Source: Escherichia phage vB-EcoS-XT34. Taken from it: 50,596 bases of DNA. A program made the translations under genes and the position numbers. Shown piece after piece: positions 251 through 30,670 of this stretch. The stretch lies in sequence record OR767160, one strand, 5' to 3'. The notes under the pieces were generated by a model. That model searched no databases. It was not told where the DNA came from and saw only the letters and a program-made list of their open reading frames with translations. The first letter of the stretch is position 1; each line of letters starts with the position of its first letter.

Positions 251-350
251 TTACGCCATGGTTACATTAAAATATCCTTATATAATAACCATTTATCTAT
301 ATTATTATTATTAATATATATATATGTAGATAATGTAGATAGTGGATATG
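251..350 (+). repeat. AT-rich element shared with 30586-30670
   Basis: TTACGCCATGGTTACATTAAAATATC followed by (TTA)n and (TA)n tracts; preceded by TTACGC-type short repeats. Confidence 0.7.
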
Positions 351-545
351 TGATATTGCGATTGTTTTCTATGATATTTTCCTACACCTGTAGGAATATG
401 ACGACATTGTAGGAATAAAAGGGCATGTAGGGGCCCATTTGCTAAAAATCCTTATCTACAAACTATACGCAGACTTTACATTGAGCTATATCTGGGGCGA
501 GAGGTCGCAAAACGTAACTAAGTCGAACATTTGCATCAATAACAC

Positions 546-574
546 TTGATAACATGTAACCACGCTGGTAGTAT
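546..574 (+). promoter_or_regulatory. candidate sigma70 early promoter (TTGATA-17-TAGTAT)
   Basis: -35 TTGATA at 546-551, 17-nt spacer, -10 TAGTAT at 569-574 preceded by TGg; sits upstream of the first + strand gene at 617. Confidence 0.45.
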
Positions 575-616
575 TGCACCCATCTTAACGAAGACCACCA
601 ATCAGGAGTAATATCT

Positions 617-1138
617 ATGTCAAATCATAATCAACACGTAAGCCTGGGCGATGTCGTCCGCTACATGGCGGAGCAGGCTCTTAAGGCCGACGACCGAACT
701 TTCCATGTCCCAATCCATCTAATAGCTCGCCAGGTTTACGGCCTCACATCTAGTGATATAGGAGGCATAAGTCGTGAGGATCTGGATGTAGGTGGCAAGT
801 ACAGTATGGCAAAGCTGAAGCCGTCATATGTCGCCAATACGGTAGCCAGGATGCCAGAGATACAGGCGGCAAACGTTCGTGCAAAATTTTCAATTAAGGA
901 TGGTGATTTCGGTGATGACGTCGAGGTTCGGTGTGCTTATCTGTCTTTGGTTGATGGCGCAATCCAGACAGGAAAGCGAGTGAAGGCAAACTGCCAGATT
1001 GCAGAGAAGGCTGTGAGCGACTTTAAGGTCAAAATACTCAAGCTGATGCCATCCGTGACTAACTTTGAGGGCGATGAGATTACAGGAGCCATCAAGGCAA
1101 TCAAAATGTACCAGGAAATGATTAGGGAGACGAAATAA
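617..1138 (+). CDS. hypothetical early protein
   Basis: 173-aa ORF, first gene of the rightward early block, stop overlaps the next start (ATGA-type coupling). Confidence 0.5.
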   Translation: MSNHNQHVSLGDVVRYMAEQALKADDRTFHVPIHLIARQVYGLTSSDIGGISREDLDVGGKYSMAKLKPSYVANTVARMPEIQAANVRAKFSIKDGDFGDDVEVRCAYLSLVDGAIQTGKRVKANCQIAEKAVSDFKVKILKLMPSVTNFEGDEITGAIKAIKMYQEMIRETK

Positions 1139-1701
1139 TGGGGATGTTTGATTTTAACGAAGAGAAGCTGACAGATGAGCAGATTATGAAGATTGCTACG
1201 GAAGATGGGCTTCCACCACTACGAGTTGCAATCAATGCTAACGGATACCGACAGTCACAAAAGTACTGGTGCGAATTAGAAGTTATGCGTCGCGCAAACC
1301 TAAATCGTGAACAATGCGTCGTGGTTGAAAAGATCTGGAAGCAAGCGATAAATGGAAAAGGCGTTGTGGGAGTTCGCTCAACATATGAGGCGATCAGAAA
1401 GGTCCAGCCGTTCGTCGAGCGTAATGGAGTAATGAATAACCTGATTGACAATATCCTACCATCACTACAGGACGCGGGAATCATTTGCCTTATTGGTGAC
1501 AAGATATATGCACACCCATACCTGGTGGGCATGTATGGGAGAGACATTCACAAGTGGTGCGACTCATGGAGATCGGTTGAGCGCAAATCTCATAGCAAAT
1601 TGCAGTCAAGCTCAGACATGATTCATGGCTATGATGCCGATGAGGTGGAGAAGGCCATCCAGTTCTACCGGAAAGCGAAATCTCTCCTGAACGGTGAATA
1701 G
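1138..1701 (+). CDS. hypothetical protein, mini-paralog of the 527-aa protein at 46425-48008
   Basis: N-terminus MFDFNEEKL..LPPLRVAINANGYRQSQ and central NGKGVVGVRSTYEA..CLIGDKIY match the N- and C-terminal ends of the 527-aa protein; stop TAG lies inside the box motif. Confidence 0.6.
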   Translation: MGMFDFNEEKLTDEQIMKIATEDGLPPLRVAINANGYRQSQKYWCELEVMRRANLNREQCVVVEKIWKQAINGKGVVGVRSTYEAIRKVQPFVERNGVMNNLIDNILPSLQDAGIICLIGDKIYAHPYLVGMYGRDIHKWCDSWRSVERKSHSKLQSSSDMIHGYDADEVEKAIQFYRKAKSLLNGE

Positions 1702-1741
1702 CACGAATTGCTAAACAACAAATCGGGTAGTCAGCTATGAT
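1699..1741 (+). promoter_or_regulatory. box element (TAGCACGAATTGCTAAA) plus -10-like TATGAT at 22 nt
   Basis: palindromic box overlapping the stop codon, fixed spacing to a -10-like hexamer, then CA-rich leader and GAGGA before the next ATG. Confidence 0.5.
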
Positions 1742-1765
1742 TACCCTATCAACAACGGAGAGGAA

Positions 1766-1978
1766 ATGATTATGGAAACTGTACGCATTGACGATGTTCA
1801 CTTTGACCAAGCAGAGGTCAGAGTAACGATGGGAACCGTTCGCGGTCACGTTATCAGTCTTGACTTCGATCCTGACGACTACGGAGATTGTCAAACGCTG
1901 ATGCAATACTCACCTGACGCGGCCCGCAAGTTAGCGGCGGCGTTAATACTGGCGGCTGACGAGGCGGAGAAGCAATGA
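1766..1978 (+). CDS. hypothetical protein
   Basis: 70-aa ORF with GAGGA RBS, downstream of box element. Confidence 0.4.
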   Translation: MIMETVRIDDVHFDQAEVRVTMGTVRGHVISLDFDPDDYGDCQTLMQYSPDAARKLAAALILAADEAEKQ

Positions 1979-2126
1979 GTAGTCACCATAATGAGCACGT
2001 AATGCAGCTATACCGACATAATCTCAAGTCACTTGGTCGGTTGGGTAAGTAAAATAACGGGCCGTTGTATGCCCATTTAGAGGCACTACGTGAGCATGAA
2101 AATGGCTCACTGCATGGAGAATCAGA

Positions 2127-2345
2127 ATGAACAATGAAGAAATGATTAAGATCCGTATTATCAAGTCTCCGTATCAGGGCGTTGATAAAAGCAAGCTGCC
2201 AGTAGTGGCGATGGCCTGGAAATATGAAGAAGGTGATGCGGGTCCGATGTACATGGTTGACGCAGATTTCATTCCGGCGCTCAGCAAGAAAGGTATGCCA
2301 CCTGGCGACTGGCCCTTTGCAGAGGATGAGGTGGAAGTTTTATGA
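2127..2345 (+). CDS. hypothetical protein
   Basis: 72-aa ORF with RBS, co-oriented in early block. Confidence 0.4.
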   Translation: MNNEEMIKIRIIKSPYQGVDKSKLPVVAMAWKYEEGDAGPMYMVDADFIPALSKKGMPPGDWPFAEDEVEVL

Positions 2346-2458
2346 AATTCTATGACGTGATTAAACTGTTCATGCCACTGTTGATGCCACTGTTGATGCT
2401 TGGATTATCATTGGCTACCCTGTTCCTGGTGATTATTTTTCTGGTGTTTGTTAAATAG
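2342..2458 (+). CDS. small hydrophobic peptide (38 aa, candidate membrane protein)
   Basis: hand-translated MKFYDVIKLFMPLLMPLLMLGLSLATLFLVIIFLVFVK; ATGA overlap with upstream stop; contains a 12-bp tandem duplication; below the ORF track size cut-off. Confidence 0.3.
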   Translation: MKFYDVIKLFMPLLMPLLMLGLSLATLFLVIIFLVFVK

Positions 2459-2498
2459 CACGAATTGTTAAACCTTCCGCAAGGCCATTTGATATAGT
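2456..2498 (+). promoter_or_regulatory. box element (TAGCACGAATTGTTAAA) plus -10-like TATAGT at 22 nt
   Basis: same architecture as the other box elements. Confidence 0.5.
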
Positions 2499-2531
2499 GG
2501 CCTTATTGAAGCAAGCAACCAATCAGAGGAT

Positions 2532-2741
2532 TTGCAGATGTTTACTGAAAAAGAGTTTGAGCAGTTTTTCCTCCTGGTCAATATGTCAGGCAGCTCGGAC
2601 CAGATGGATCGCATAAACAGCCGTCTTGAGATGCCAAAGTTCATCGAAGCGGTAGGCCGCAAGACCTGCGATCGCATGTGGCACTTAATCGAGCATTACG
2701 GCGTAACACCAGCAACACTTAAATCGGAGCACATGAAATGA
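2532..2741 (+). CDS. hypothetical protein
   Basis: 69-aa ORF with RBS AGAGGA. Confidence 0.4.
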   Translation: MQMFTEKEFEQFFLLVNMSGSSDQMDRINSRLEMPKFIEAVGRKTCDRMWHLIEHYGVTPATLKSEHMK

Positions 2742-3118
2742 AAGTACGCTTACTTAACCCGTCAATCTACTCCCTCAAACCAAACCAGAAACTTAGCGAT
2801 TGGAGCAAGGTCGCCGATCCGGAAAGTTACCCCGTAGTGGTTGAGACTGATGATATCAGCCATGAACCTAAAATCATTCAGGATGCATTCAAGGATCGCG
2901 TTCTTGTCGGTGCTAGTGAGCTGGATCGTGTTTTTAACATGGGTGGAGGTTACAAACGAAGAAGCGACACGCAGCTCGGCTGGTGGAACAATCAGAATAA
3001 CTCAAGTCGCCCACATATCCCTAGTAACTCCTGGGAGCCAGTCGGCCCGTTCGACTACTGGAACAAATTAAAGGCATCACGCGAAGTTGGCGAAACTGTA
3101 GGTAAGGGTTACTTATGA
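2738..3118 (+). CDS. hypothetical protein
   Basis: 126-aa ORF, start overlaps the upstream stop. Confidence 0.45.
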   Translation: MKVRLLNPSIYSLKPNQKLSDWSKVADPESYPVVVETDDISHEPKIIQDAFKDRVLVGASELDRVFNMGGGYKRRSDTQLGWWNNQNNSSRPHIPSNSWEPVGPFDYWNKLKASREVGETVGKGYL

Positions 3119-3294
3119 TTATTTTATGCATCGTGCTTTACATCCTGGGCGCGCTTCCGGTTTATGCAATTGCAAAAGATGTTAGCAATAGTGACAACAA
3201 GTGGTACGACATGGTAATCGTTGCCGCTATCTGGCCCCTGATCGTTGCGTTCGGAATTGTTAAAGGCGTCTACCAAAAGTTGAAGGAGCAATAA
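3115..3294 (+). CDS. small hydrophobic protein (59 aa)
   Basis: hand-translated MIILCIVLYILGALPVYAIAKDVSNSDNKWYDMVIVAAIWPLIVAFGIVKGVYQKLKEQ; ATGA overlap with upstream stop; not in the ORF track. Confidence 0.35.
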   Translation: MIILCIVLYILGALPVYAIAKDVSNSDNKWYDMVIVAAIWPLIVAFGIVKGVYQKLKEQ

Positions 3295-3296
3295 TC

Positions 3297-3515
3297 ATGC
3301 AAGTCTACACTAACAGTAAAGGCATTGAATTTTGTGCGGTCGGCGATGTGGTCCTGCGCACTGGTGGCGGATACGGGATTATTAATATCTCAGGCATTAC
3401 GCAGGATCAGTTGGTAAAGGGTATCCAGGCTGGCATCTTTACCTATCACTCATCACTGACGGCTAAGCAGTATGTCACACTTGAAACTGCAATTCGCGCC
3501 GGATTCATCGAATAG
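3297..3515 (+). CDS. hypothetical protein
   Basis: 72-aa ORF, stop TAG is the first triplet of a box element. Confidence 0.4.
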   Translation: MQVYTNSKGIEFCAVGDVVLRTGGGYGIINISGITQDQLVKGIQAGIFTYHSSLTAKQYVTLETAIRAGFIE

Positions 3516-3556
3516 CACTTTTTTGTTAAAACTTGCTCGGAGACATTAGCTATAGT
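3513..3556 (+). promoter_or_regulatory. box element variant (TAGCAC-T6-TGTTAAA) plus -10-like TATAGT
   Basis: box with a 1-nt longer core, 22 nt to TATAGT. Confidence 0.45.
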
Positions 3557-3597
3557 GTCTCCTGTCAAGTGAACACAAACCAACTGAGGAATCACAT

Positions 3598-4353
3598 ATG
3601 AACAGCATCAACCGTTATATCCCTGTGTCAGTGCCAACCAGCGTCAATATTCACGGCGTCGGAATGCAATCCTGCGACGATGGAGCATGGGTATCCTACG
3701 CAATGCATAAAAAAGAAATCGAGTCCTTACAGGCACGTTTAAAGGCCTTAGAATCGACTCAAAAACATCAAATTTCTGCACCGTCGATTATCGCTGACCA
3801 TGTTGAGCAGGCAATCAAAGAGGCTGTAGGTAAGCTGGTGCACGAAGTATGTGAGAAATTGCTCAAGGATTTGCCTAAGTACAATGGCGATCCGTGTCAC
3901 AGCACTGTCGATGCATTCGTGAATGAGCTTGCGGCTGGCCCAGGGAAAACCGTTAAGGATGACACTTGCAGCGTCGAAGATGAATTGACGAAGAACGGAA
4001 AGTTCAATTTCGGGACTAATTTTGGTGAAGGTAAGTCGCTTACAATGTCAGTAGGCGAATGCGAGTCAGCGAATGATCGCAAGGTGGCTGTTTGCTACCA
4101 TGTTAACGGAAATATGTTTATCAACGGTTGCGAGTATGAGTATGAAGCTGATGAATGTGAGCCAGGGTGTGAGCCGAGCATTATTCATATCGTACAAGAT
4201 GCATTCGTCTCTGATTTAAAAGGAGATTATCGCTGGAATGCCAGGAAGATTGGTAAGAGGATTGGTGATATTATTGAGGACAAGGCAATTCTTAACGATA
4301 CATATGCGATCATGAGTCAAGATGGCGTAGTTGCTAAATTCTACATTAAATAG
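3598..4353 (+). CDS. hypothetical protein, Cys-rich C-terminal half
   Basis: 251-aa ORF, N-terminal predicted coiled coil, several Cys pairs near the C-terminus. Confidence 0.5.
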   Translation: MNSINRYIPVSVPTSVNIHGVGMQSCDDGAWVSYAMHKKEIESLQARLKALESTQKHQISAPSIIADHVEQAIKEAVGKLVHEVCEKLLKDLPKYNGDPCHSTVDAFVNELAAGPGKTVKDDTCSVEDELTKNGKFNFGTNFGEGKSLTMSVGECESANDRKVAVCYHVNGNMFINGCEYEYEADECEPGCEPSIIHIVQDAFVSDLKGDYRWNARKIGKRIGDIIEDKAILNDTYAIMSQDGVVAKFYIK

Positions 4354-4393
4354 CACGATTTGTTAAAAGGGGATTCATCCTGACTGGTATAAT
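4351..4393 (+). promoter_or_regulatory. box element (TAGCACGATTTGTTAAA) plus TGgTATAAT
   Basis: box overlapping stop, 22 nt to an extended -10-like TGgTATAAT. Confidence 0.5.
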
Positions 4394-4424
4394 CCCCACA
4401 TCAACCACACGGAAGGAAGTCAAA

Positions 4425-5042: not shown

Positions 5043-5091
5043 AACTAAACTTAACGGGCGCACATTGCGCCCACTACTCAGGAATATCAAA

Positions 5092-5712: not shown

Positions 5713-5713
5713 A

Positions 5714-5756
5714 TAGCACGAATTGCTAAACCCGCTCCGGCGGGTTTTGTTATAGT
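5714..5756 (+). promoter_or_regulatory. box element (TAGCACGAATTGCTAAA) plus -10-like TATAGT
   Basis: canonical box, spacer contains the GC hairpin cccgc-tccg-gcggg, 22 nt to TATAGT. Confidence 0.5.
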
Positions 5757-5785
5757 TAGTTCACACCAAACGAGAGGAAAGCAAA

Positions 5786-5944: not shown

Positions 5945-5946
5945 CC

Positions 5947-6385: not shown

Positions 6386-6415
6386 TACCCCATCGAAACG
6401 AACGAGGAATCAGAA

Positions 6416-6951: not shown

Positions 6952-7190
6952 TGTTTGGATTAACCGATCCGCAGATGAACGCAGTAAAGGCCAAGGCCAA
7001 GCAATTAAACGCAGCGTATGCCACCCTTAGCAAGAAAGATCGCAAAGATGATAAGATGGTTGCCTCAATTATTACCAAGCACCATGAGGCCGTAGCGACC
7101 ATTATATCGCGCTCTCGTTTTATTTGGATTGCTGGATACATAGAGGGTAGATGCGGAAGGCGGGATGATGGAGAATGTATTTATGATTGA
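6951..7190 (+). CDS. hypothetical protein
   Basis: 79-aa ORF; its 3-prime end overlaps the HNH gene start, so boundaries are uncertain. Confidence 0.3.
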   Translation: MFGLTDPQMNAVKAKAKQLNAAYATLSKKDRKDDKMVASIITKHHEAVATIISRSRFIWIAGYIEGRCGRRDDGECIYD

Positions 7191-7683
7191 TATAAATGAT
7201 TACCTTTCATATGATGAGTCAAGCGGCGACCTAATATGGGCATTTAAATTAAGCAGAAAGGTAGTTGTCGGATCGGTAGCTGGATGCAAGTGCAAAAGAG
7301 ATGGTTATATAAAGGTTAGGTTTGAAAATAGGCTTTACTTGGCTCATAGGATTATATGGGAGTCTGTAATGGGGAGAATACCAGAAGGGATGCAGATTGA
7401 TCATATAAACCACAATAGGTCAGATAACAGGGTGGAAAATTTAAGGCTTGTTACGCATATCGAAAACGGCATGAATCAATCAAGGAGCGTTAGAAACAAA
7501 AGCGGTGTAACTGGAGTGTCATGGCAGAGCAGGGATAAGAAGTGGAAGGCGGTAATTTCAAAGGATAGAAAGGCAATCAGTCTTGGGTATTTCAATAACT
7601 TCGATGATGCGGTGGCTGCTAGGCTTAGTGCTGAAATTGAATTTGGTTACCATGTAAACCATGGAAGAAAATTAAAGGTGTAA
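7165..7683 (+). CDS. HNH homing endonuclease with AP2-like DNA-binding domain (copy 1)
   Basis: HRIIWE..IDHINHNRSDNRVENLRLVT motif plus C-terminal AARLSAEIEFGYHVNHG; paralogous to five other copies. Confidence 0.75.
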   Translation: MMENVFMIDINDYLSYDESSGDLIWAFKLSRKVVVGSVAGCKCKRDGYIKVRFENRLYLAHRIIWESVMGRIPEGMQIDHINHNRSDNRVENLRLVTHIENGMNQSRSVRNKSGVTGVSWQSRDKKWKAVISKDRKAISLGYFNNFDDAVAARLSAEIEFGYHVNHGRKLKV

Positions 7684-7688
7684 AATCT

Positions 7689-10794: not shown

Positions 10795-11244
10795 ATGATT
10801 AAGGTTAAGAAAAGTAAATTCTACCCAGGTGATATAGCTGGAACCATTGATGCTGATGGTTATGTGAGGATAACGATAGGTGGAGTGTCTATTCTTGCTC
10901 ATAGGTTTGCGTGGGAATTCGATAATGGAGACATACCAGAGGGAATGCAGATAGACCACAAAAATCACGTAAGGAACGATAATAGGAGGGAGAATCTAAG
11001 GGTTGTTACCCATAAGGATAACGGTAGGAACACGAAAAGATCTGTCAGAAATAGGAGTGGATGTGTAGGTGTTTATTGGTATGAGTCAAGGTCTAAGTGG
11101 TGGGCTTTCATTGGAAACTCAGGAAAGGGAGAGAGGAAATCACTAGGCTACTTCTCTGATTGGTTTGACGCGGTTTGCGCCAGGAAATCAGCCGAGCTCA
11201 GGCTTGGATACCATGAAAACCATGGTAAGATAGACATCAAATAA
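10795..11244 (+). CDS. HNH homing endonuclease with AP2-like domain (copy 2)
   Basis: HRFAWEF..IDHKNHVRNDNRRENLRVVT and WFDAVCARKSAELRLGYHENHG; inserted between terminase and portal genes. Confidence 0.75.
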   Translation: MIKVKKSKFYPGDIAGTIDADGYVRITIGGVSILAHRFAWEFDNGDIPEGMQIDHKNHVRNDNRRENLRVVTHKDNGRNTKRSVRNRSGCVGVYWYESRSKWWAFIGNSGKGERKSLGYFSDWFDAVCARKSAELRLGYHENHGKIDIK

Positions 11245-19656: not shown

Positions 19657-22566
19657 ATGACAGATAAATTTGCAGGGCTATCGCTTGGGGTTGACATATC
19701 CCAGGTTGATGCGGCGGTTAAATCTCTGGATGACTTATCCAGGGCGAACAACACAGCCGGAAAGAGCTTTGACAATTTCATTGATGCTGAGCAAGTAGCA
19801 AAGCAGAAGATGAAAGAGTTCAACAACGAGGTTAAGCGCCAGAAGAAAGAATTTGCCGACGTAGAGAAAGCCATTGATCCTACAATCGGAAAAATGCGCC
19901 AGTTGCAGAAGGCGAGCGTTGACCTGGATAACCTCTGGAGTAAAGGCCTAGTTCCAGACGCCGAGTTCTTCAATCTGTCAAGCATGATTGAAACTCAGAT
20001 CAATGCGCTTAACCGATCCAAGATGGCGCTTACCGAAGAAGGCCGTGCGGCTATGGCTAACTCAAAAGCCAAAGAGGCGGCAACAAAGGACGCTGACAGG
20101 TTCCTTAAATCACTGCAAGAACAAGCTAACGCTGCGACAATGACCAAGACTGAGCTTCTCGAATTGAAGGCGGCACAGCTTGGCGTATCGACTCAGGCCG
20201 CACCTTTAATTGCAGCGATGAACAAGCAGACTGTAGCGACAAATGCGGCTGGCCTTTCCGCTGGCGAGTACAAGAACGCGCTGCGCATCTTGCCAATGCA
20301 GATCACTGACGTTGTTACCTCCCTTGCTTCCGGTATGCCTGTATGGCTGGTTGCAATCCAGCAGGGCGGGCAGATCAAGGATTCGTTCGGCGGTGTTGGG
20401 AATACGTTTAAAGTTTTGCTTTCTTACCTTAATCCGGTAACGGTTGGTATGGGCGCTATGGGTATCGCACTTGCTGGCCTTGCTAAAGCTGGTTACGACT
20501 CCTACCGATCCATCACTGACATGAAAAATGCCTTGATTGAGACTGGCGGATTTGCAGCAGCGAGTGCGGCAGACCTTGACCAGATCGCAATCAAGATTGC
20601 GGATACTGGTAACGCGACTATCGGAACCGTCCGCGACATCGCTACTGAGCTTGCTAAGAGTGGGAAATATACTCAGGAACAAATCAGGAATATCACCCGC
20701 GCTACCGCTGAATGGTCAGCCGCTACAGGCCGAGCATCAAGCGATATTATTAAGGATTTCGACAAGATTGCAGATGATCCGGTAAAAGGTCTGGCTAAAC
20801 TTAATGAGCAGTACAACTTCCTTGAGAAAGGTCAGTTAACCTACATTAACGGCATCATCAAAACGAAGGGCGAAACCGAAGCTGTGACAGCGGCGACTAA
20901 ACTGTTTGCCGACACCATGGAAGAACGAATGAGCAAGATTGCAGATACTGCAAGCCCACTTGAAAAGATGTGGACTGACATTAAGAAATGGTCATCCGAT
21001 GCCTGGGGTTGGGTTGGCGATCATACGCTTGGTGCTCTAAACCTCATCATTGACGTGGTTAGCGGCACGGTGATTCAGGTAAAAATGATTCTCGCTAAAG
21101 GTGACGAATACATTTCTAACTTTATCGCATCGGCAATCAAGGCAACGCAGAGCCTGCCAGGTATGAGCGATTTCGGTAAGGACATTCTCGCAGAGCAAGA
21201 ATCAATTGTTAAAAACTCAAAAGAAACATACGACGGATTAGCAAGGGATCTTGATTCAATCAATGCGCGGGTTGAAAAGGGCGAGATGGGATACGTTGAT
21301 GCACTTAAGACTCGGCGCGACCTGCAAAAGCAATACAGCAAAGAAACAAAAGATGCTGTAGAGAAGGAAGCGAAAGCCATTGAGGAACAGAACAGGAAGA
21401 AGGCAAAGAGCACGAAGGGGGACATCACAAAAGGTGCGACCGAGCAGCTTGATAAAGAACTGTATGTTCTCAAGGCACAGCTTAAAGTTTTGGAAGATCA
21501 TAAGTCGATTAACGACAAGATCTCAAGCCAGCGTCGGGCGCTGTGGGCGACTGAGGCTCAAATCTCAATCCTACAGGACGCGCAAAGCAAGCGTAAACTG
21601 ACCAACGAGGAAAGGGCATTGCTCGCCAGTCAGCAAAAGGTGCTTTCGTTAGCGAAGGAGAAAGCTGAGCTTGGCGATCAGATTGTTAAGCAGGAGCAGA
21701 TCAATAAACTGAATGACGACTCAATGAAGTTTATCATGCAGATTGACGCAGCGAGTAAAAGCCTTAACGCAACGCGCGCAATGGGTACTATTGAGGCAGA
21801 GCGACAGATTCAGCTTGAGAAGATCCGAGCGGAGTACATGGCGAAGGGAGGCGGTCAGGATGATGAGGCTCTCAAGGAAATGATTGACAAGCAGAACGAG
21901 TATTACGCCAACGAGGATGAGAAGCGTGGAGACTGGCTTGCTGGGGCGCAAAAAGCATTTTCTGACTACGGCGAAAGCGCAATGGATATGTACGGAAACG
22001 TAGAAAACATCGCAAGCAACGCCCTGAATGGTTTAACAGACATGATGACCGAGTTCTTGATGACGGGCCAGGCCAACTTTGCAGACTTTGCAAAAAGCAT
22101 TATCAGCCAGATCATTAAGATGATCACGCAGATGGTAATCTTTAACTCACTGTCAGGGATGGGCGTCGGCAGCGGTAAGGGGTTCTCCTTCGCTAATTCA
22201 GGTTGGTTCGCCACTGGCGGCTACACCGGAGATGGCGGTAAGTACGAGCCAGCAGGAACGGTTCATAAGGGTGAGTTTGTCATGACCAAGGAAGCTACCA
22301 AGAGAATTGGCGTCGATAACCTTTATCGAATGATGCGCGGTTATGCGAATGGCGGCGTGGTTGGTGGAACTTCAAGCGGTGGCGGCGGTAGTGCAATCAT
22401 GGCTGGCGGCGTGACAATCGGAAGTATCCCTGTTAGCATCAATAACGGTAGCGATCCGAAGGGCATGGAGCAGGGCGTGAAAATGATTTTCAAGCAAATG
22501 ATTCAGGAATCATGTTCCCAGGGTGGCGAAGTTTACAATTACATCAACGGAAAAGCAGGAGCGTAA
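19657..22566 (+). CDS. tail tape measure protein
   Basis: 969 aa, long predicted coiled-coil regions, Gly-rich C-terminal part, position after G/GT. Confidence 0.85.
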
Positions 22567-22616
22567 TAAATGGCCCTAGACGTGTTCAAGTGGTGCGTAC
22601 AGGTTCAGGATGGTGG

Positions 22617-22715
22617 NNNNNNNNNNNNNNNNNNNNNNNNNNNNNNNNNNNNNNNNNNNNNNNNNNNNNNNNNNNNNNNNNNNNNNNNNNNNNNNNNNNN
22701 NNNNNNNNNNNNNNN
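22617..22715. other. run of 99 N flanked by an exact 128-bp direct duplication (assembly join)
   Basis: 22489-22616 is identical to 22716-22843. Confidence 0.9.
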
Positions 22716-22796
22716 TTCAAGCAAATGATTCAGGAATCATGTTCCCAGGGTGGCGAAGTTTACAATTACATCAACGGAAAAGCAGGAGCGTAATAA

Positions 22797-23144
22797 ATGG
22801 CCCTAGACGTGTTCAAGTGGTGCGTACAGGTTCAGGATGGTGGCGGTGTAATGACCGTCACTAATAATGACAGGCAGGTGCAGTTTGGCAATGGATTCCG
22901 CCAGGTTGCATCGTCTGGCTATAACACTGAGCGACGAGAGTACGCAATCAGTTACGTTGGCAAGGACTGGAAAGAAGTGCGCGAGTTTTTGCGATCGCAT
23001 AGACTGAAAGCCTTTGCCTTTACCCCACCGGAGGACAAGATCGGCGTCTTCCTATTGAAGCCGGACACGCTGAATACTCAGCCAATCGGTCGTGGTCTTC
23101 TTGTTGTAAAATGCACCATTGTAGAAGCCTTCACAGCGGTGTAG
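22797..23144 (+). CDS. minor tail protein (lambda M-like)
   Basis: 115-aa ORF immediately after the tape measure gene; a duplicate start at 22570 lies in the pre-gap copy. Confidence 0.55.
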   Translation: MALDVFKWCVQVQDGGGVMTVTNNDRQVQFGNGFRQVASSGYNTERREYAISYVGKDWKEVREFLRSHRLKAFAFTPPEDKIGVFLLKPDTLNTQPIGRGLLVVKCTIVEAFTAV

Positions 23145-23934: not shown

Positions 23935-23993
23935 TTGACATTACATCGAAATCATGCCAGCATTAAATCAAATGGATACTGTAGGATACCAAA

Positions 23994-24479
23994 ATGATTA
24001 ACTGGCATGATTACTTTAAGTACGATAACGGGGTTCTGATTAACATAAAGAGCAGGAATGGGGCTAAGTATATGCAGCAAGCGGGGAGGAAAAATAAATC
24101 ATCAGGCTACATTGAGGTGATGGTTAATTATAAGCGGTATCAGGCGCATAGGACTGTGTGGGAAATGAATCATGGTAAAATTCCAGAAGGAATGGAAATA
24201 GATCACATAAATGGGATTCGTGATGACAACAGAATTGATAACCTGAGGCTTGTCACAAGCAGAACAAACGACACAAACAGGGCTAAAAGCAAGGCCAACA
24301 CAAGCGGTGTCGTTGGTGTTTGCTGGGATAAAAGAAAAGGTTTATGGTTGGTTAGGATTTACGACAACAAGAAACCAGTTTTCGTTGGTTACTTTCGTGA
24401 ATGGTTTGATGCTGTATGCGCGAGAAAGTCATCGGAAAGGACTTATAATTATCATGAGAATCACGGGAGAGCGAAATGA
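23994..24479 (+). CDS. HNH homing endonuclease with AP2-like domain (copy 3)
   Basis: HRTVWEM..IDHINGIRDDNRIDNLRLVT and WFDAVCARKSSERTYNYHENHG; inserted between the L-like and K-like tail genes. Confidence 0.75.
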   Translation: MINWHDYFKYDNGVLINIKSRNGAKYMQQAGRKNKSSGYIEVMVNYKRYQAHRTVWEMNHGKIPEGMEIDHINGIRDDNRIDNLRLVTSRTNDTNRAKSKANTSGVVGVCWDKRKGLWLVRIYDNKKPVFVGYFREWFDAVCARKSSERTYNYHENHGRAK

Positions 24480-25788: not shown

Positions 25789-25791
25789 GTT

Positions 25792-25817
25792 AAACCCGCC
25801 TTGCGCGGGTTTTTTTG
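25792..25817 (+). terminator. rho-independent terminator
   Basis: aaacccgc-cttg-cgcgggttt followed by TTTTTTT. Confidence 0.65.
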
Positions 25818-25829
25818 TGCCTGTATAAT
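25801..25829 (+). promoter_or_regulatory. candidate promoter (TTGCGC-17-TATAAT) overlapping the terminator
   Basis: consensus -10 TATAAT at 25824-25829 upstream of the J-like gene. Confidence 0.4.
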
Positions 25830-25864
25830 GAAACTTCGATAAATCGCACGAAAGGCTAAACATC

Positions 25865-28800
25865 ATGATTAAAAATAATGTAGTGACGGGCCGAAAGGGT
25901 GGCAGCAGCAAGCCGCATACCCCACAGGAGATGGAAGATAACCTGATCTCAATCAACAAGATTAAGGTTTTGCTCGCCGTTAGTGATGGCGAGGTTGATG
26001 ATAATTTCTCATTAAAGGACTTGTATCTTAATGATGTTCCTGTAATTGCACCTTCCGGAGAGGTTAACTATGAAGGCGTAAAAGCTGAGTTCCGCCCAGG
26101 TACGCAGACACAGGATTACATCAAAGGCTTCAACGACACGGCGGCTGAGTTCACTGTTGGTCGTGAATTGAAAACAACGACTCCTTACGTGATCTCGGTA
26201 ACGAATAAGCAGCTATCAGCAGTCCGCGTAAAAATCCTGATGCCTCGCGGCGTTACCACGAAAGAAAACGGCGACATGGTTGGCGTGGTCGTGAAGTGGG
26301 CCGTAGATATGGCGGTTGATGGAGGGAGCTACCAGGAGGTTTTATCTGACGTCATCGATGGTAAGACGATTAGCGGATATGACAAGACAAAGCGTATTGA
26401 CTTGCCGTCGTTTAATAGCCAAGTCCTGCTTCGGGTTCGTCGTGTTACTCCTGATTCGAATAATGCAAGAGTTGTTGATGCGATCAGCATTCAGTCATAT
26501 GCGGAAGTTATTGACGCTAAATTCCGTTATCCTCTGACTGGTCTTGTTTACGTTGAGTTTAACAGCGAGCTGTTCCAGCAGATCCCAAGAATTAGCACGA
26601 AAAAGAAATGGAAGCTCATCAACGTTCCGAGCAACTATAATCCAGATCTTCGCGAGTATAACGGCACGTGGGATGGTAGCTTTAAAAAAGCATGGTCAAA
26701 TAATCCGGCGTGGGTGCTTTATGATTTGATCACCAATCAGCGCTACGGACTCGACCAACGGGAATTGGGGATTGCAGTTGATAAGTGGTCACTATATGAC
26801 GCTGGTCAATACTGCGACCAGAAAGTGCCAGACGGTCACGGCGGAACAGAACCTCGCTATCTTTGCGATGTGGTTATTCAATCTCAGGTTGAAGCGTACA
26901 ATCTGGTGCGAGATATTTGCTCAATATTCAGAGGGATGAGCTTCTGGAACGGCGAGAGCCTTTCAATTGTCATCGACAGACCTAGAGAGGCGTCGTATAT
27001 TTTCACTAACGATAACGTCGTTGATGGCTCATTTGCCTATACGTTCGCAAGTGAAAAAAGCATGTACACAACCTGCAACGTCACGTTCGACGACGAGCAG
27101 AACATGTACAGCCAGGACATTGAAGGGGTATTCGACCTTAACGCCTCATTACGCTTCGGTCATAATCCGACAAGCATCACGGCGATCGGGTGTACTCGAC
27201 GCAGTGAAGCGAATCGACGGGGCCGTTGGGTTCTCAAAACAAACCTTCGCAGCACGACGGTGAGTTTTGCTACTGGCCTTGAGGGTATGATTCCGATGAT
27301 TGGCGACGTGGTAGCAATCGCTGATAACTTCTGGTCAAGTAACCTGACGCTTTCGTTATCAGGTCGTGTGATGGAAGTGTCAGGCCTGCAAGTGTTCACA
27401 CACTTTAAGGTCGATGCGCGCGCTGGTGATTTCATTATCGTGAACAAGGCTGACGGAAATCCGGTGCGCCGGACGATTTCAAAAGTTTCTGCGGACGGGA
27501 AAACCATTGAGCTTAACGTTGGATTCGGTTTTGATGTTCAACCCAACACAGTGTTCGCAATCGACCGCACTGATGTGGCCTTGCAGCAATACGTTGTAAC
27601 CGGAATAACGAAGGGCGACGGAGACGATGAGTTCACGTACAGCATTACGGCAGTTGAATACGATCCGAACAAATACGACGAGATTGACTACGGCGTAAAT
27701 ATTGATGACCGACCAACCAGTATTGTAGATCCTGACAACATGCAGCCACCTAAAAACATTGTCGTTTCATCATACTCTAGAATTGTGCAGGGAATGAGCG
27801 TAGAAACAATGGTGGTAGGATGGGATAAAGTTCAGTACGCAAGCAAGTACGATGTGCAGTGGCGAAAGGATAACGGCAACTGGATGAACGTGCCGCGCAC
27901 AGCAAGCTCAGAGGTTGAAGTGGAAGGTATTTATGCGGGTAATTATCACGTACGCGTAAGGAGTATCTCAAGCGGTGGAAACACGTCTCCATGGTCTGAA
28001 GTTGTCAGCGTCGGATTGACGGGTAAGATTGGGAAGCCAGATAAACCAACAGTCATAACTGCATCTGACGACCAGGTGTTTGGGATACGGGTTAAATGGG
28101 GATTCCCTGAAGGCTCTGGAGATACCGCGTACACTGAGTTGCAGCAGATACCAGATAATGGAGCCGGAGGTCACACAGGCGAGGAGAATGCAAGCCTGTT
28201 AACAATGATACCATACCCTCAGTACGAGTACTGGCACTCTACACTACCGGCAGGATATGTGAACTGGTACAGGGCAAGATTGGTAGACAGGATTGGTAAC
28301 GCCTCTGACTGGTCTGACATTGTTCGCGGAATGGCAAGCGATGACGTTGAGTCAATAATTGGAGAAATAAAGGTTGATATCGAGAATTCCGAGGGGTTTA
28401 AGTACCTACAGCAGAACGCCATTGAGTCAAACGGAGCTATTCAGGCGCAGGCGGAATCAATTCTTGAAAACGCACTTGCAAACGACACTGACGTGCGACG
28501 AATGACCAAGGAAAACGGCAAGCGTAAGGCTGAATACGTTAAGGCGGTGAATCTTATTGCTGATGAAACTCAGGCTCGCGTAGAGGCTCTCACGCAGCTT
28601 AAAGCACAGATTGATGATGAGGTTGTAGCTTCCATAACTGAAGTTCAGACGGCACTAGCCACCGAAACGGAAGCTAGGACTACTGCCGACACTGCTTTAA
28701 GCGCTCAGATTGGCGACACGCAGGCCGCACTGAATGAAAAACTTGACTCATGGGTAGATGCAGAATCAGCTGGCGCTCAGTACGGCGTTAAATTGGGCCT

Positions 28801-29230
28801 CAAATACAATGGGGTTGAATATAGCGCAGGGATGAGCATGGAACTTGTTGGCACTGGTGGGAATGTTCGCAGTCAATTCATTTTTGACGCAAACAGATTC
28901 GCGATCAGTAACGGTATTGGCTCTGGTTCCGGTCAGTGGCAGCTCCCCTTCGTTGTAGAGAACGGAAACGTAATCATCCAAAGCGCGGTAATTGGCGATG
29001 GATCAATCAGCAACGCGAAGATTGGTAACTTCATTCAGTCCAATAACTACGTAGCTGGAAGTACGGGATGGAGGATTGATAAGTCTGGTAACGCTGAGAT
29101 TCGAGGTAAACTGTACGCCAGCAGTGGTGAATTCGCCTTCAACGGAACAAACAATACGGTACAGATTAACGGAAACGGAATCACTGTTAACTTACCAGGA
29201 GGAGGAAGAATTGTTGTGGGTACGTTCTAA
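25865..29230 (+). CDS. central tail fiber / host specificity protein (lambda J-like)
   Basis: 1121 aa, last and largest gene of the tail module. Confidence 0.8.
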   Translation: MIKNNVVTGRKGGSSKPHTPQEMEDNLISINKIKVLLAVSDGEVDDNFSLKDLYLNDVPVIAPSGEVNYEGVKAEFRPGTQTQDYIKGFNDTAAEFTVGRELKTTTPYVISVTNKQLSAVRVKILMPRGVTTKENGDMVGVVVKWAVDMAVDGGSYQEVLSDVIDGKTISGYDKTKRIDLPSFNSQVLLRVRRVTPDSNNARVVDAISIQSYAEVIDAKFRYPLTGLVYVEFNSELFQQIPRISTKKKWKLINVPSNYNPDLREYNGTWDGSFKKAWSNNPAWVLYDLITNQRYGLDQRELGIAVDKWSLYDAGQYCDQKVPDGHGGTEPRYLCDVVIQSQVEAYNLVRDICSIFRGMSFWNGESLSIVIDRPREASYIFTNDNVVDGSFAYTFASEKSMYTTCNVTFDDEQNMYSQDIEGVFDLNASLRFGHNPTSITAIGCTRRSEANRRGRWVLKTNLRSTTVSFATGLEGMIPMIGDVVAIADNFWSSNLTLSLSGRVMEVSGLQVFTHFKVDARAGDFIIVNKADGNPVRRTISKVSADGKTIELNVGFGFDVQPNTVFAIDRTDVALQQYVVTGITKGDGDDEFTYSITAVEYDPNKYDEIDYGVNIDDRPTSIVDPDNMQPPKNIVVSSYSRIVQGMSVETMVVGWDKVQYASKYDVQWRKDNGNWMNVPRTASSEVEVEGIYAGNYHVRVRSISSGGNTSPWSEVVSVGLTGKIGKPDKPTVITASDDQVFGIRVKWGFPEGSGDTAYTELQQIPDNGAGGHTGEENASLLTMIPYPQYEYWHSTLPAGYVNWYRARLVDRIGNASDWSDIVRGMASDDVESIIGEIKVDIENSEGFKYLQQNAIESNGAIQAQAESILENALANDTDVRRMTKENGKRKAEYVKAVNLIADETQARVEALTQLKAQIDDEVVASITEVQTALATETEARTTADTALSAQIGDTQAALNEKLDSWVDAESAGAQYGVKLGLKYNGVEYSAGMSMELVGTGGNVRSQFIFDANRFAISNGIGSGSGQWQLPFVVENGNVIIQSAVIGDGSISNAKIGNFIQSNNYVAGSTGWRIDKSGNAEIRGKLYASSGEFAFNGTNNTVQINGNGITVNLPGGGRIVVGTF

Positions 29231-29233
29231 AAC

Positions 29234-29256
29234 AAAAGCCCCGAAAGGGGCTTTAT
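29234..29256. terminator. bidirectional terminator between convergent genes
   Basis: aaaagcccc-gaaa-ggggcttt with A and T tracts on both sides. Confidence 0.6.
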
Positions 29257-29258
29257 CT

Positions 29259-30203
29259 TTAATACATATCTGGGAGGTAAGGTAGTGGCGTTGATATTGT
29301 TACGTCAGGTCTGTTTCCGATCTCATATCTTACAATCCTCGATCCAGTTCCTGAGCGAACATAACCATTGCTCATCACGACTCCCTTGTTCCTTAACTCC
29401 TTGTAAGCCCGTATTGCTCTTGTGTTAAATCCACACCTGAGTATTGGGAAGTAAGATTCACCAATGTATTGATTGCTACCTGATAGGTTTATGAATCCAG
29501 AAACAACCAATGGCCTCGTAACGGTTGATAATGTGCAAACACCATTTGAGTTAAATATGTTCAGTCCAGGACCAGGGGTTGGAGCGACCATCTGGAAGAT
29601 AATCAAATCCATAGTGACACTTCCTGGTGTATCACCAGTATCTTCAGTGTTTATGTTTGTACATATCAGCTGGTTACTACCATTGTATTCAACTGATACA
29701 CCTGAGTTATTCCACTTTCCAAATGGTATCCCATAAATTGGAAGGGTGTATGTATTGGTGAAAGATATCCTCTGAGCAAACTTGCATACCAATAGCCTAT
29801 CAGTAGTGGTTATCGAAGTAAAATCAGTACTATTCGCAACATAAATACCCTGTCCCGTAGATGCTCTTAGTACCTCAATAACAGTACCAGAAAATTGAGT
29901 TATACGGTCAGAATATCCATTCTCATATCCAATCGATATTGTTCCGCTTGATGCTGTTGACGAGAATCCATTTATGTAATAAATCTCAACCCCTCTATCA
30001 AGTTCGAATGAGTATGCACCATTGTTAGGGATTAGGAACCTTGAAGCTCCTTCATTACCCTGAATTGAAAAATTTTTGCTAAATCCACCACTGGATACGT
30101 TGAAATTTCCAGCGAAATTCAATGCCCGCATCCCTGCGGTTATTGTCATTGGCTTTCTTCCGTCATTGAGGTCTATATAAATACCTTGAGCCATTAATTC
30201 CAC
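29259..30203 (-). CDS. candidate receptor-binding or tail-tip accessory protein
   Basis: 314-aa Gly/Ser/Thr/Asn-rich ORF co-transcribed downstream of a lipoprotein gene and convergent with the J-like gene. Confidence 0.4.
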
Positions 30204-30424
30204 TCCTTAGAACCATAATCACGAACAGAGCCACTGGAACCTTTAATACCATCGTAGCGAATGTCAATTTCACCAGCCGCAACAACTACGCCATCTTTCC
30301 ATTTAGATACGCACACGCCGCTTGAGGACGTTGCACACCACCCATCAGGGCGAGGGCCAGAAGAACAACCAACTGTCATGATCAATGCTGCTGCGATGAT
30401 TGCCGATTTGATTAAGTTAGTCAT
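30194..30424 (-). CDS. small lipoprotein, candidate superinfection-exclusion protein (Cor/Llp-like)
   Basis: 76 aa, signal peptide with lipobox LIMTVGC-S, driven by a box-type element. Confidence 0.55.
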
Positions 30425-30464
30425 TTTGTTTTCCTTAGTAAGTATTTTTCGTTTCGATGAAGTA

Positions 30465-30508
30465 ACTATACATGCAACTATCGTCGGAGTCTTTAACTAT
30501 TCGTGCTA
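30465..30508 (-). promoter_or_regulatory. box element variant (TAGCACGAATAGTTAAA) plus TATAGT and TTCATCGAAACGA leader, leftward
   Basis: read on the minus strand upstream of the lipoprotein gene; spacing and leader match the + strand boxes. Confidence 0.45.
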
Positions 30509-30585
30509 TTGTATACACGTAACCAATGTAACTCGATGTATACAATCCCATCCGCGAGAAATGATATACGCACTGTTACGCCAAT

Positions 30586-30670
30586 TTACGCAATGGTTAC
30601 ATTAAAATATCTATATATATCAACCTTTTACTCTTATTATTATTATTATATATATTAATGTGTATATCAT
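30586..30670 (+). repeat. AT-rich element shared with 251-350
   Basis: 26-nt core TTACGCAATGGTTACATTAAAATATC, one mismatch to the copy at 251-276, followed by TATATAT and (TTA)n tracts. Confidence 0.7.

Follow-up and report, generated by a model that had tools for sequence, protein, structure and literature searches.

A paired intergenic module with phased repeats and AT-rich DNA is a candidate replication-origin-type site in a T1-like phage

The window that we analyzed was the complete genome of a T1-like (Drexlerviridae) phage, Escherichia phage vB-EcoS-XT34 (OR767160; 50,596 nt, referred to as "the window" throughout). Two related intergenic stretches, copy A and copy B, were observed on its plus strand, 30 kb apart (Table 1). 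Copy A was located upstream of the first rightward gene, and copy B was located between a leftward lipoprotein gene and the rightward exonuclease-Erf-SSB operon. Both contained a 26-nt core, TTACGC[C/A]ATGGTTACATTAAAATATC. The initial annotation had reported this core twice with one mismatch, and our scans confirmed it: no third match was found in the genome at up to three mismatches, and the core was recovered in 0 of 100 dinucleotide-preserving shuffles. A repeat search extended the pair to 71 nt with 82% identity (243–313 vs. 30578–30648; repeat family D7). A module profile was built from 10 copies in 5 phages, and an nhmmer search of the genome with this profile returned exactly two matches. 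The module occupied about 110–175 nt around the core; the element was present as annotated, but its size had been understated at 85–100 bp. In each copy, the order was four phased repeats, the core, an IHF-type position, then a (TTA)n-(TA)n tract and, beyond it, TGTA-type motifs. Both copies also had the TATATAT and (TTA)n runs said to follow the core. The TTACGC-type repeats said to precede it were also real, with a regular spacing of 9–10 bp, and the similarity was therefore not confined to simple AT repeats, a pattern that the initial annotation had named as refuting.

Table 1. Positions of the paired module, its parts, neighbouring signals and candidate reader genes in the window
Feature	Position	Strand	Basis
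Module copy A (profile envelope)	203..377	+	nhmmer E 2e-38; 10-copy alignment
Module copy B (profile envelope)	30536..30713	+	nhmmer E 8e-49
26-nt core, copy A	251..276	+	sequence match and shuffles
26-nt core, copy B	30586..30611	+	sequence match and shuffles
Four phased repeats, copy A: GTACGC 232, TCACGC 241, TTACGC 251, GTTACA 261; spacing 9, 10, 10	232..266	+	
Four phased repeats, copy B: ATACGC 30566, TTACGC 30576, TTACGC 30586, GTTACA 30596; spacing 10, 10, 10	30566..30601	+	
ATGTAAC, inverted partner of GTTACAT (30596–30602), bracketing the AT centre of copy B	30669..30675	-	
Two TGTAGA motifs, right flank of copy A	325..339	+	
Upstream X-box, copy A, CCCACCGTAGGAATCGTGTACGC	215..237	+	10-copy alignment
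Upstream X-box, copy B, CCATCCGCGAGAAATGATATACGC	30548..30571	+	alignment
Second, downstream X-box of the B region, CCCTCCGCCAGAAGCGATATACAC	30754..30777	+	
Position homologous to the IHF core, copy A, TAATAACCATTTA, 2 mismatches	283..295	+	alignment
IHF core consensus WATCAANNNNTTR, exact match (TATCAACCTTTTA), copy B	30618..30630	+	consensus scan
AT tract, copy A: (TTA)4 302–313, (TA)5 315–325; centre of the least stable duplex of the genome	296..326		
AT tract, copy B: (TTA)5 30634–30648, (TA)4 30647–30655; second least stable duplex of the genome	30631..30657		
Shared downstream block 2, A region, TTTACATTGAGCTATATCTGG	475..495	+	
Shared downstream block 2, B region, TTTACATCTAGCTATAGCTGG	30791..30811	+	
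Sigma-70-type promoter of the first rightward gene, TTGATA-17-TAGTAT; start codon 617	546..574	+	
Sigma-70-type promoter of the RecE-like exonuclease gene, TTGACT-16-TATAGT; start codon 30942	30881..30908	+	
Leftward 21-nt dyad repeat (TAGCA-N5-TGCTA type), upstream of the lipoprotein gene	30492..30510	-	
Leftward 21-nt dyad repeat at the window end; on circularisation, it delimits the A control region on the left	50560..50577	-	
DUF3987 (SF6, MCM-related) replicative helicase with C-terminal winged helix; candidate self-loading initiator	46425..48008	-	Pfam 4.5e-39; PHROG 'DNA helicase'
Helicase mini-paralog: N-terminal 42 aa (71% identity) and C-terminal winged helix (45% identity), lacking the ATPase core	1138..1701	+	
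Cro/YdaS-like helix-turn-helix protein, alternative candidate reader of the repeats	36605..37078	-	

The two copies had been placed between leftward and rightward transcription units. This held for copy B. For copy A, whose leftward unit sits at the window end (44946–50500), it requires reading the genome as circular or terminally redundant. Moreover, there were three divergent junctions rather than two; at the third (37079–37179), the profile detected no module copy, and only a dyad-type promoter was present. The 21-nt dyad repeats belong to a family described in T1-like phages (PMC11447400). On the rightward side, a weaker similarity between the A and B regions continued for ~300 nt, through blocks 2 and 3, to the sigma-70 promoters and leader of the first rightward genes. 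In both copies of most genomes, the start codon lay at a conserved 329–391 nt from the module. Within the module itself, consensus and weight-matrix scans for sigma-70 promoters gave different weak candidates in A and B. Similarly, no sigma-70 promoter with 16–18 bp spacing was found at a common position across 14 modules; only the proximal gene promoters were strong. Neither region contained a conserved ORF, the small ORFs being of low complexity and non-matching, and an Rfam scan of the whole genome yielded no family at the gathering threshold. GC skew followed the direction of transcription and was uninformative, and our literature search found no transcription-start or origin data for the T1-like family.

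As shown in Table 1, each copy carried four short repeats at 9–10 bp intervals, phased on one helix face in the manner of iterons. Across the 10 aligned copies, the spacers varied, but three ACGC units and GTTACA did not. GTTACA was enriched in the A and B regions compared to the rest of the genome in this phage, ESCO41, and T1. The inverted GTTACAT/ATGTAAC pair of copy B was also observed in both copies of ESCO41 and in copy B of Rtp and T1, and an AGAACA inverted pair was present in both copies of TLS and in copy A of slyngel. As a whole, 8 of the 14 modules had the group-specific hexamer as an inverted pair bracketing the AT centre. Copy A of the present phage lacked the inverted partner, its TGTAAC being replaced. 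TGTAG[AG] occurred 8 times in the A region against ~0.45 expected, a value obtained by summing two per-500-nt rates. Furthermore, the X-box of copy A aligned with its counterpart in the other copies, the CCGCGGAAA...ATACGC box, and the X-box-related motif CCGCGGA was found six times in the A and B regions of Rtp and nowhere else in that genome.

Duplex stability was analyzed by nearest-neighbour scans of the whole genome with 40-, 60-, and 100-nt windows. The copy A tract ranked first at all three sizes (z 5.1–5.4) and the copy B tract second (z 4.6–5.05), indicating that in both copies the repeats adjoin AT-rich DNA of low duplex stability, as in iteron origins. The least stable 60-mers per control region were similar in seven genomes (−53 to −59 kcal/mol), a comparison that covered the two control regions of each. 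The IHF-type core of copy B followed an A/T tract, TTAAAATATCTATATA, and is thus a predicted IHF site; it was one of only 6 matches to the core consensus on both strands of the 50.6 kb. Copy A of ESCO41, ETEP102, and Rtp showed one mismatch to the IHF core (TAACAACC[A/C]TTTA), and slyngel and Henu7, from two other genera, had an exact core in both copies. Many related loci carried an exact IHF core 320–385 nt upstream of the exonuclease gene; in TLS-type modules, the core was not recognisable.

The module pair was found at the same two positions in nine relatives of at least six genera, that is, in all examined members of the family. This phage, ESCO41, Rtp, and p111 each had exactly two copies, with both on the same strand, and equivalent pairs were observed in T1, TLS, slyngel, and Henu7. 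Positions 30584–30703 of copy B were 96–100% identical in Rtp, ESCO41, p111, and ETEP102, whereas the neighbouring genes were far more diverged or replaced, and the AT-tract portion at 30614–30643 was 100% conserved in the relatives compared. Within a lineage group, the paralogous copies aligned with scores of 59–72, compared to 18–36 for orthologs between groups. Between the groups, the repeat changed from GTTACA/TTACGC to AGAACA/TGTTCT in both copies together, and the switched repeat, as read directly from the sequences, was again phased at 10 bp. This joint switch, together with the presence of the pair in all members examined, points to a phage-encoded reader of the repeats; most likely, the factor would be encoded by the phage rather than being only a host protein. 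A short-query BLAST in distant mode with copy A returned six close relatives only, for which we suspect the low-complexity filter, and an exact 17-mer scan of viral contigs gave mostly chance matches in unrelated large contigs. A search for related loci with the single protein DUF7174 retrieved one locus.

Three proteins were considered as candidate readers, namely, the DUF3987 helicase, its mini-paralog, and the Cro/YdaS-like HTH protein. The DUF3987 helicase belongs to a family with a C-terminal winged helix (PMC4889955), and a winged-helix fold appeared in the predicted structure of its paralog. Its gene was ~2.5–4 kb from copy A across the circular junction and ~16 kb from copy B, and the mini-paralog was the second gene rightward of copy A. 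In an alignment, no visible co-variation was found between the winged helix and the repeat type; T1 shares the GTTACA/TGTAACA repeat, yet it has the most diverged helicase C-terminal domain. The recognition helix of the Cro/YdaS-like protein differed between lineages, and its alignment likewise showed no clear co-variation with the repeat type. Comparison of T1 with TLS by identity per ORF gave no outlier protein tracking the repeat type, this whole-protein comparison being uninformative. No gp38- or DnaB-type protein was detected among the selected proteins scanned by Pfam and PHROG.

The arrangement was compared to known systems. SPP1, a virulent pac-type siphovirus, has two distant origins, each built from direct repeats together with an unwinding element rich in AT, and one phage protein binds both; the second origin has been proposed to stall forks and thereby lead to recombination-dependent concatemer synthesis through an exonuclease, an annealing protein, and SSB (PMC6316719). 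The present pair resembles SPP1 oriL/oriR in having two separated copies with the same repeat-plus-AT-rich organisation, and copy B lies just upstream of the exonuclease-Erf-SSB operon. In contrast, the T1-like helicase is of the DUF3987/MCM-related type, SPP1 oriL lies inside gene 38 while the copies here are intergenic, IHF is no part of the SPP1 system, and origin activity is a candidate function here. The iterons of SaPI flank an AT-rich region. SaPI Rep and SCCmec Cch2 helicases bind short (5–8 nt) element-specific iterons via their C-terminal domain (PMC7581432), and the T1-like helicase family, which also has a C-terminal winged helix (PMC4889955), might by analogy bind repeats. However, the origin of those elements is immediately downstream of the helicase gene, whereas here the copies are kilobases away from it, twice, and the winged helix did not obviously co-vary with the repeat type.

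In P4, ori and crr are separated cis regions with the same short repeat, TGTTCACC, and both are read by the replication protein alpha. The TLS/slyngel/Henu7 repeat (TGTTCT/TGTTCAC) resembles this sequence, maybe coincidentally, and the annotation of T1 likens its primase to the P4-type alpha primase. However, the T1-like primase has 313 aa and lacks alpha's helicase and origin-binding domains, and the group of the present phage uses GTTACA/TTACGC. In lambda, divergent early transcription is flanked by two homologous control regions, OL/PL and OR/PR, to which the same phage HTH proteins bind; the 17-bp dyads there overlap the promoters, whereas the short direct phased repeats here are ~300 nt away from the promoters and next to an unwinding-prone tract. 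An origin of the lambda type, with iterons inside the initiator gene, was rejected, both copies being intergenic. oriC, pSC101, and R6K gamma also pair phased initiator sites with IHF bending and an AT-rich unwinding element. Unlike in these origins, neither copy had DnaA boxes nearby, and copy B matched no record of a plasmid collection searched in distant mode. The three DnaA boxes (TTWTNCACA) of the genome were all at least 8 kb from copy A and 1.8 kb from copy B, and a DnaA-dependent oriC-like origin was therefore rejected.

From these sequence comparisons, we regard the module pair as the best candidate for the replication origins of the T1-like family, a role in early-gene control being also possible. 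We assign a probability of roughly 0.4 to the reading that both elements represent a single nucleoprotein-assembly module in duplicate, serving as a replication-origin-type site. The initial annotation had suggested an origin or a host-factor binding region. The phased repeats, the lowest duplex stability, and the exact IHF core of copy B argue for this suggestion, but a host protein alone is less likely as the reader. The scheme that we infer, from protein binding and unwinding to origin activity, including the binder's identity and any division of labour between the copies, would be as follows. A phage-encoded protein would read the TTACGC/GTTACA sites, four of which are phased at 10 bp on one flank of the AT centre, as well as the inverted GTTACA on the opposite flank in copy B; host IHF would bend the DNA at the adjacent consensus site; and the (TTA)n-(TA)n tract would open, allowing the phage helicase and primase and host Pol III to start. 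By analogy with self-loading initiator helicases, the most plausible reader would be the DUF3987 helicase, acting through its C-terminal winged helix. Copy B may be a second origin or a fork-arrest site triggering recombination-dependent concatemer synthesis, because it is directly upstream of the exonuclease-Erf-SSB operon. A fuller version of this scheme, which we consider unlikely as a whole, is a two-site system of Drexlerviridae, in which the helicase would self-load at lineage-specific repeats by means of the IHF bend and the trinucleotide unwinding tract. The pac-end copy would then fire, the exonuclease-Erf-SSB copy would be the second origin or a programmed fork barrier switching to concatemer synthesis, and the mini-paralog would be a competitor or regulator.

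The seven classic T phages include T1, whose relatives commonly contaminate laboratories and fermentations and are also candidates for therapy. To our knowledge, the T1 replication origin has never been located. The genome papers of TLS and SU57 report that no origin was found in T1-like phages (PMC11447400, PMC7718038). The pair described here, conserved and origin-like in its anatomy, thus offers two exact places to test, together with specific candidate proteins.

The similarity of A and B up to the promoters and the conserved start-codon distance suit a transcriptional unit no less than an origin. Also against an origin, the helicase gene adjoins neither copy, the IHF position is degenerate in copy A, and the inverted partner is absent there. 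The module could instead be a shared hub of early-transcription control, as the initial annotation had also proposed: the whole control region of ~450 bp would have been duplicated, and the module would be its upstream regulatory part, in which arrays of operators or enhancers, bound by a phage regulator (for example, the Cro/YdaS-like HTH protein), are combined with an IHF bend and AT-rich DNA sensitive to supercoiling. Such a hub would set the timing or raise the activity of the divergent early promoters at both junctions, as at lambda OL/PL and OR/PR. We hold this reading as tentative and somewhat less likely than the origin-type one. Besides the continued similarity through blocks 2 and 3 to the promoter and leader and the 329–391 nt kept in most genomes, it gains from the location of the copies in large divergent control regions, upstream of the two best nearby sigma-70 promoters, and from an HTH protein with a lineage-variable recognition helix. 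IHF sites upstream of phage early promoters are also a known arrangement; they precede the early promoters in lambda pL and Mu Pe. However, the rightward promoters are ~270–330 nt from the module, the distance to the leftward dyad-type promoter is unequal (~75 nt in B vs. ~270 nt in A), and the module has no positionally conserved promoter. Operator arrays, furthermore, would need neither the near-complete conservation of the AT tract nor its rank as the least stable DNA. If the module were such a hub, it would define the early control logic of the T1-like family.

A boundary sequence for recombination or another cis function is improbable in our judgement; it might be a homology patch or might serve packaging or DNA organisation, for example, as a pac accessory in copy A. 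In ESCO41 and p111, a different gene lies to the left of the copy B island, and in Rtp, an extra gene lies to its right, the island itself being kept in place; the phage is also a mosaic with ESCO41-like structural genes and Rtp-like replication genes. Mosaic joints at regulatory or origin sequences are, however, a consequence of conservation and not a function, and a homology patch leaves the phased repeats, the IHF consensus, the paired repeat switch, and the conserved internal order unexplained. As for packaging, copy A lies ~250 nt from a genome start shared with T1 and ESCO41, beside a cluster of ATTGCA repeats. The ATTGCA/GCAATA repeats, a putative pac region, numbered 7 in region A (TATTGCA copies at 1–110) and 0 in region B; because this terminase-proximal cluster is absent from region B, a packaging function is not common to both copies, and a pac-site role for the module was rejected. 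(TTA)n and (TA)n runs in AT-rich regions can also align by composition alone, and the pair might then be a chance likeness of intergenic stretches or a recent, neutral, functionless duplication. This explanation, to which we give almost no weight, was refuted by the shuffles, by the profile E-values with no third match, by the conservation of both positions in at least six genera, and by a sequence conservation higher than that of the flanking genes.

The 26-nt core of the module was found at 251-276 and 30586-30611, i.e., in copies A and B, the two same-strand copies of this non-coding module, with a single difference between them. No third copy was detected in the window at ≤3 mismatches, nor in any of 100 shuffles, bearing out the initial annotation, which had described a near-identical core occurring twice; chance resemblance of the two copies is excluded. 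Extended without gaps, the core pair covered 71 nt at 82% identity. A module profile built from ten copies of five phages gave exactly two matches in the window, both on one strand (203-377, E 2e-38; 30536-30713, E 8e-49), and two in each related whole genome as well. Because non-repetitive sequence is shared by both copies, the similarity is not limited to simple AT repeats, and the proposed duplication holds in this respect, too.

The window is the complete genome of a T1-like siphovirus (Drexlerviridae), whose gene order is the same as that of T1, Rtp, and ESCO41. Position 1 corresponds to base 1 of the ESCO41 record, and the T1 record, when aligned, starts here as well; thus, on circularising, the leftward genes of 44946-50500 adjoin 1-616. 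The genome is mosaic, with structural genes ~90-99% identical to those of ESCO41 and replication genes ~83-92% identical to those of Rtp, and its control regions are 95-97% identical to those of p111, P817, and PH1062 (Nouzillyvirus-like). Copy A has the leftward unit of the window end on one side and the first gene transcribed rightward (start 617) on the other; copy B is flanked by a leftward Cor-like lipoprotein gene (30194-30424) and a rightward RecE-like exonuclease gene (start 30942). The two copies had been assigned to "both" divergent control regions. Their placement between leftward and rightward units stands, but the profile search of the window revealed no module copy at a third divergent junction (37079-37179).

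The order of the module parts, obtained from the ten-copy alignment and a coordinate search, was identical in copies A and B (see table). In this alignment, the short-repeat cores (ACGC three times, then GTTACA) were invariant and the spacers variable. The exact IHF core consensus occurs at six sites only in the whole genome, among them that of copy B; at this position, copy A is two bases off the consensus. The A/B likeness runs on rightward, more weakly, through a second box (B region), the shared block, and GTAACTA up to the sigma-70 promoters. Nearest-neighbour stability scans of the whole genome at 40, 60, and 100 nt showed that the two modules are its least and second least stable duplexes (z 4.6-5.4), the next site being clearly behind both (z 3.2-3.8). 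In the window and p111, region A, the control region around copy A, contains eight TGTAG[AG] motifs, including TGTAGGAAT twice; the equivalent positions in relatives are taken by CCGCGGAAAT or TGTATAC/TGTAAC motifs. The TGTAG[AG] motifs are a lineage-specific replacement of a second repeated box within the same framework.

Coordinates of the module parts and of other features in the window
Feature	Position	Strand	Remark
Part 1, upstream box CC..CG..GAA..ATACGC	215-237 (A); 30548-30571 (B)		
Part 2, four short repeats	232/241/251/261 (A); 30566/30576/30586/30596 (B)		9-10 bp spacing
Part 3, TTAAAATATC, then TATATA			both copies
Part 4, AACC-TTTA	30618-30630 (B)		exact IHF core TATCAACCTTTTA in copy B
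Part 5, (TTA)4-5, then (TA)n			both copies
Part 6, TGTA-type motifs	30669-30675 (B)		ATGTAAC, inverted partner of GTTACAT (30596-30602)
Shared block TTTACAT..AGCTATAGCTGG	475-495 (A region); 30791-30811 (B region)		
Sigma-70 promoters of first rightward genes	546-574 (A); 30881-30908 (B)		
TGTAG[AG]-motif places	381-431, 201-206, 325-339, 455-460		region A
21-nt dyad repeat, leftward	30492-30510; 50560-50577	-	left end of regions B and A, respectively
21-base repeat	1698, 2455, 4350, 5713, 6342, 25843, 31979, 35542, 39031, 40066, 41616, 43856	+	first base of ATAGCAC...
21-base repeat	30509, 48513, 50106, 50577	-	first base of ATAGCAC...
Leader motif CATCGAAACGA(A/C)	6390-6403		and others
Leader motif CATCGAAACGA(A/C)	30446-30459, 48455-48468, 50048-50061, 50518-50531	-	and others
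Primase with zinc ribbon	35611-36552		
Cro/YdaS-like HTH protein	36605-37078		
SF2-type helicase	37180-39174		
DUF3987 helicase	46425-48008	-	
HNH-motif ORFs	7165-7683, 10795-11244, 23994-24479, 39171-39653, 40140-40643	+	
HNH-motif ORF	44946-45476	-	

ESCO41, Rtp, ETEP102, and p111 all have the exact 17-nt core GGTTACATTAAAATATC in copy B; copy A of the same phages has it with 0-3 changes. Copy B (30584-30703) was 96-100% identical in all four relatives, compared with 30-96% for the flanking coding DNA; the gene on its left is another one in ESCO41 and p111, and an additional gene lies to its right in Rtp. The exact 17-nt core is missing from T1, TLS, slyngel (Hanrivervirus), and Henu7 (Henuseptimavirus); these phages do carry an AT-rich block in each of the two homologous intergenic regions, the pair being alike within each genome. 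The exonuclease gene also led to 38 related loci, every one of which has a strongly AT-rich block upstream of this gene, ~310-415 nt away in 37 cases. Similarly, of the 13 control regions whose gene start is defined, 12 have their least stable 60-mer 329-391 nt from the start codon of the first rightward gene, whether the region is A or B. In slyngel and Henu7, the IHF-type core matches exactly in copy A and in copy B, and many loci carry it 320-385 nt upstream of the exonuclease gene; this host consensus recurs in several lineages, unlike the lineage-specific short repeats. A second conserved IHF-consensus site was observed ~141 nt upstream of the exonuclease start on the minus strand in T1-type loci (L050-L063), and one ~142 nt upstream on the plus strand in Hanrivervirus-type loci (L028-L035); the window has a AGCTATAGCT palindrome block at the ~141-nt position instead.

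Pairwise comparison of 130-nt modules gave scores of 59-72 for A versus B within the window/ESCO41/Rtp group and of 32-57 within the TLS/slyngel/Henu7 group, for A-B as for A-A or B-B, whereas orthologous modules between the two groups scored only 18-36. The enriched short motif was GTTACA/TGTAAC in the window, ESCO41, and T1, and GTGAACA/AGAACA in TLS; in T1, TGTAACA occurs six times in the two regions and not at all in the rest of the genome. As read from the sequences, 10-bp phasing returns in the TGTTC-type repeats of TLS (two TGTTCT-type copies), slyngel (three), and Henu7 (three). The group-specific hexamer formed an inverted pair around the AT centre in 8 of 14 modules. Both copies thus change together between lineages, which argues for a shared and itself evolving reader of the short repeats that would be encoded by the phage.

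Replicative helicases related to MCM, the DUF3987 proteins carry a winged helix at the C-terminus (PMC4889955), and for one of them, helicase activity and binding to its primase have been demonstrated (PMC11724360). The self-loading initiator helicases of SaPI and SCCmec use their C-terminal domains to read short iterons (PMC7581432); by analogy, the DUF3987 helicase is a reasonable candidate reader. Against this, T1 shares the GTTACA-type repeat, yet its winged helix is the most diverged of those compared, and the helicase gene adjoins neither module. To the right of copy A, the second gene (1138-1701, +) encodes a mini-paralog, in which the N-terminal 42 residues of the helicase (71% identity) are joined directly to the C-terminal 92 (45%) without the ATPase core. 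Its predicted model (pLDDT 83) has a helix-strand-helix-helix-hairpin unit, for which the nearest solved folds, all weak matches, were winged helices of MukE/JetB, MarR, Cdc6/ORC, and forkhead. The mini-paralog has ~270 homologs in the protein database; it is found in ESCO41, reduced to a 17-aa remnant in Rtp, and missing from T1, TLS, and slyngel. It may act as a competitor or regulator at sites bound by the helicase termini. The recognition helix of the HTH protein differs between lineages, which keeps this protein as a further candidate reader.

By analogy, the anatomy of the module is that of an initiator-dependent replication origin, in which phased short repeats, a lineage-specific repeat, and a predicted IHF bend would be combined with the weakest duplex in the genome and, in many copies, with inverted sites across the AT centre. 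SPP1, a virulent pac-type siphovirus, is a direct precedent for two copies; its oriL and oriR both contain direct repeats together with an AT-rich unwinding element (PMC6316719). At the second SPP1 copy, fork stalling and hand-over to an exonuclease, annealing protein, and SSB have been proposed (PMC6316719), and copy B lies directly upstream of this kind of operon. From this anatomy and the SPP1 precedent, we ranked first the reading of the pair as paired origin-type sites, with a probability of about 0.4; binding, unwinding, and initiation at the modules are what we infer. Published analyses of T1-like genomes found no origin (PMC11447400, PMC7718038). Our literature search on this family, conducted without the Rtp and T1 genome papers, found no transcription-start, footprinting, or marker-frequency data, and an earlier mention of the module repeats in those two papers is possible.

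The main rival, less probable in our judgement, is that the pair forms an upstream control hub for early transcription. The A/B similarity reaches the promoters and the distance to the start codons is conserved, both of which favour this reading; across 14 modules, no sigma-70 promoter was found at a common position, and two had no sigma-70 candidate above threshold. Phage origins are often coupled to promoters, and the origin and transcription readings are therefore not exclusive. That the pair serves solely as a recombination boundary or packaging accessory appears improbable. ATTGCA repeats adjoin copy A at the genome start and are absent from region B, the control region around copy B, indicating that packaging is not the function common to both copies. 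Furthermore, the module had no Rfam family match, no similar plasmid record, and no conserved ORF, and no DnaA box was found near copy A or copy B.

Positions 1-145, continuing from 50578-50596, form the densest non-coding short-repeat cluster of the genome, in which TATTGCA/GCAATA repeats are followed by a run of G and, within 17 nt (124-140), three GATC sites. An equivalent cluster (GATTGTTGCA..., GGGGGGATC) was observed at the start of the T1 record. The cluster is distinct from the duplicated module and is probably the pac/terminase recognition region.

A "21-base intergenic repeat" is known in the T1 family (PMC11447400); it has the dyad structure TAGCA-N5-TGCTA. For four of its copies (1698, 2455, 4350, and 5713), a -10-like TATAGT/TATAAT was counted exactly 38 nt downstream of the repeat, placing the dyad centre near -42, and TTGCTA, 22 nt from the -10, is too far away for a -35. 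A GC hairpin often lies between the dyad and the -10-like element. This arrangement resembles that of a dimeric activator's binding site at phage middle/late promoters lacking a -35. In many dyad-type promoters, the leader motif comes after the -10-like element and before the ribosome-binding site, and the exonuclease leader has the variant CATCAACAACGAACGA. The third divergent junction, only 100 nt long, separates the HTH regulator from the SF2 helicase and carries a rightward dyad-type promoter (AATAGCATTTTTTGTTAAAA ... TAGTAT) and, on the other strand, an extended -10-like TGGTACAAT before the regulator gene.

Six paralogous small ORFs have in common a ~88-nt repeat (family D1), which encodes an HNH-type motif (...DHINH..DN..NLR...), and at least some of them break up gene blocks that are otherwise conserved (versus ESCO41 and p111). 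Two runs of 99 N (22617-22715 and 42558-42656) are each bordered on either side by the same 128-nt sequence at 100% identity (22489-22616 = 22716-22843; 42430-42557 = 42657-42784), a pattern suggestive of an assembly or masking artefact and not of biology.
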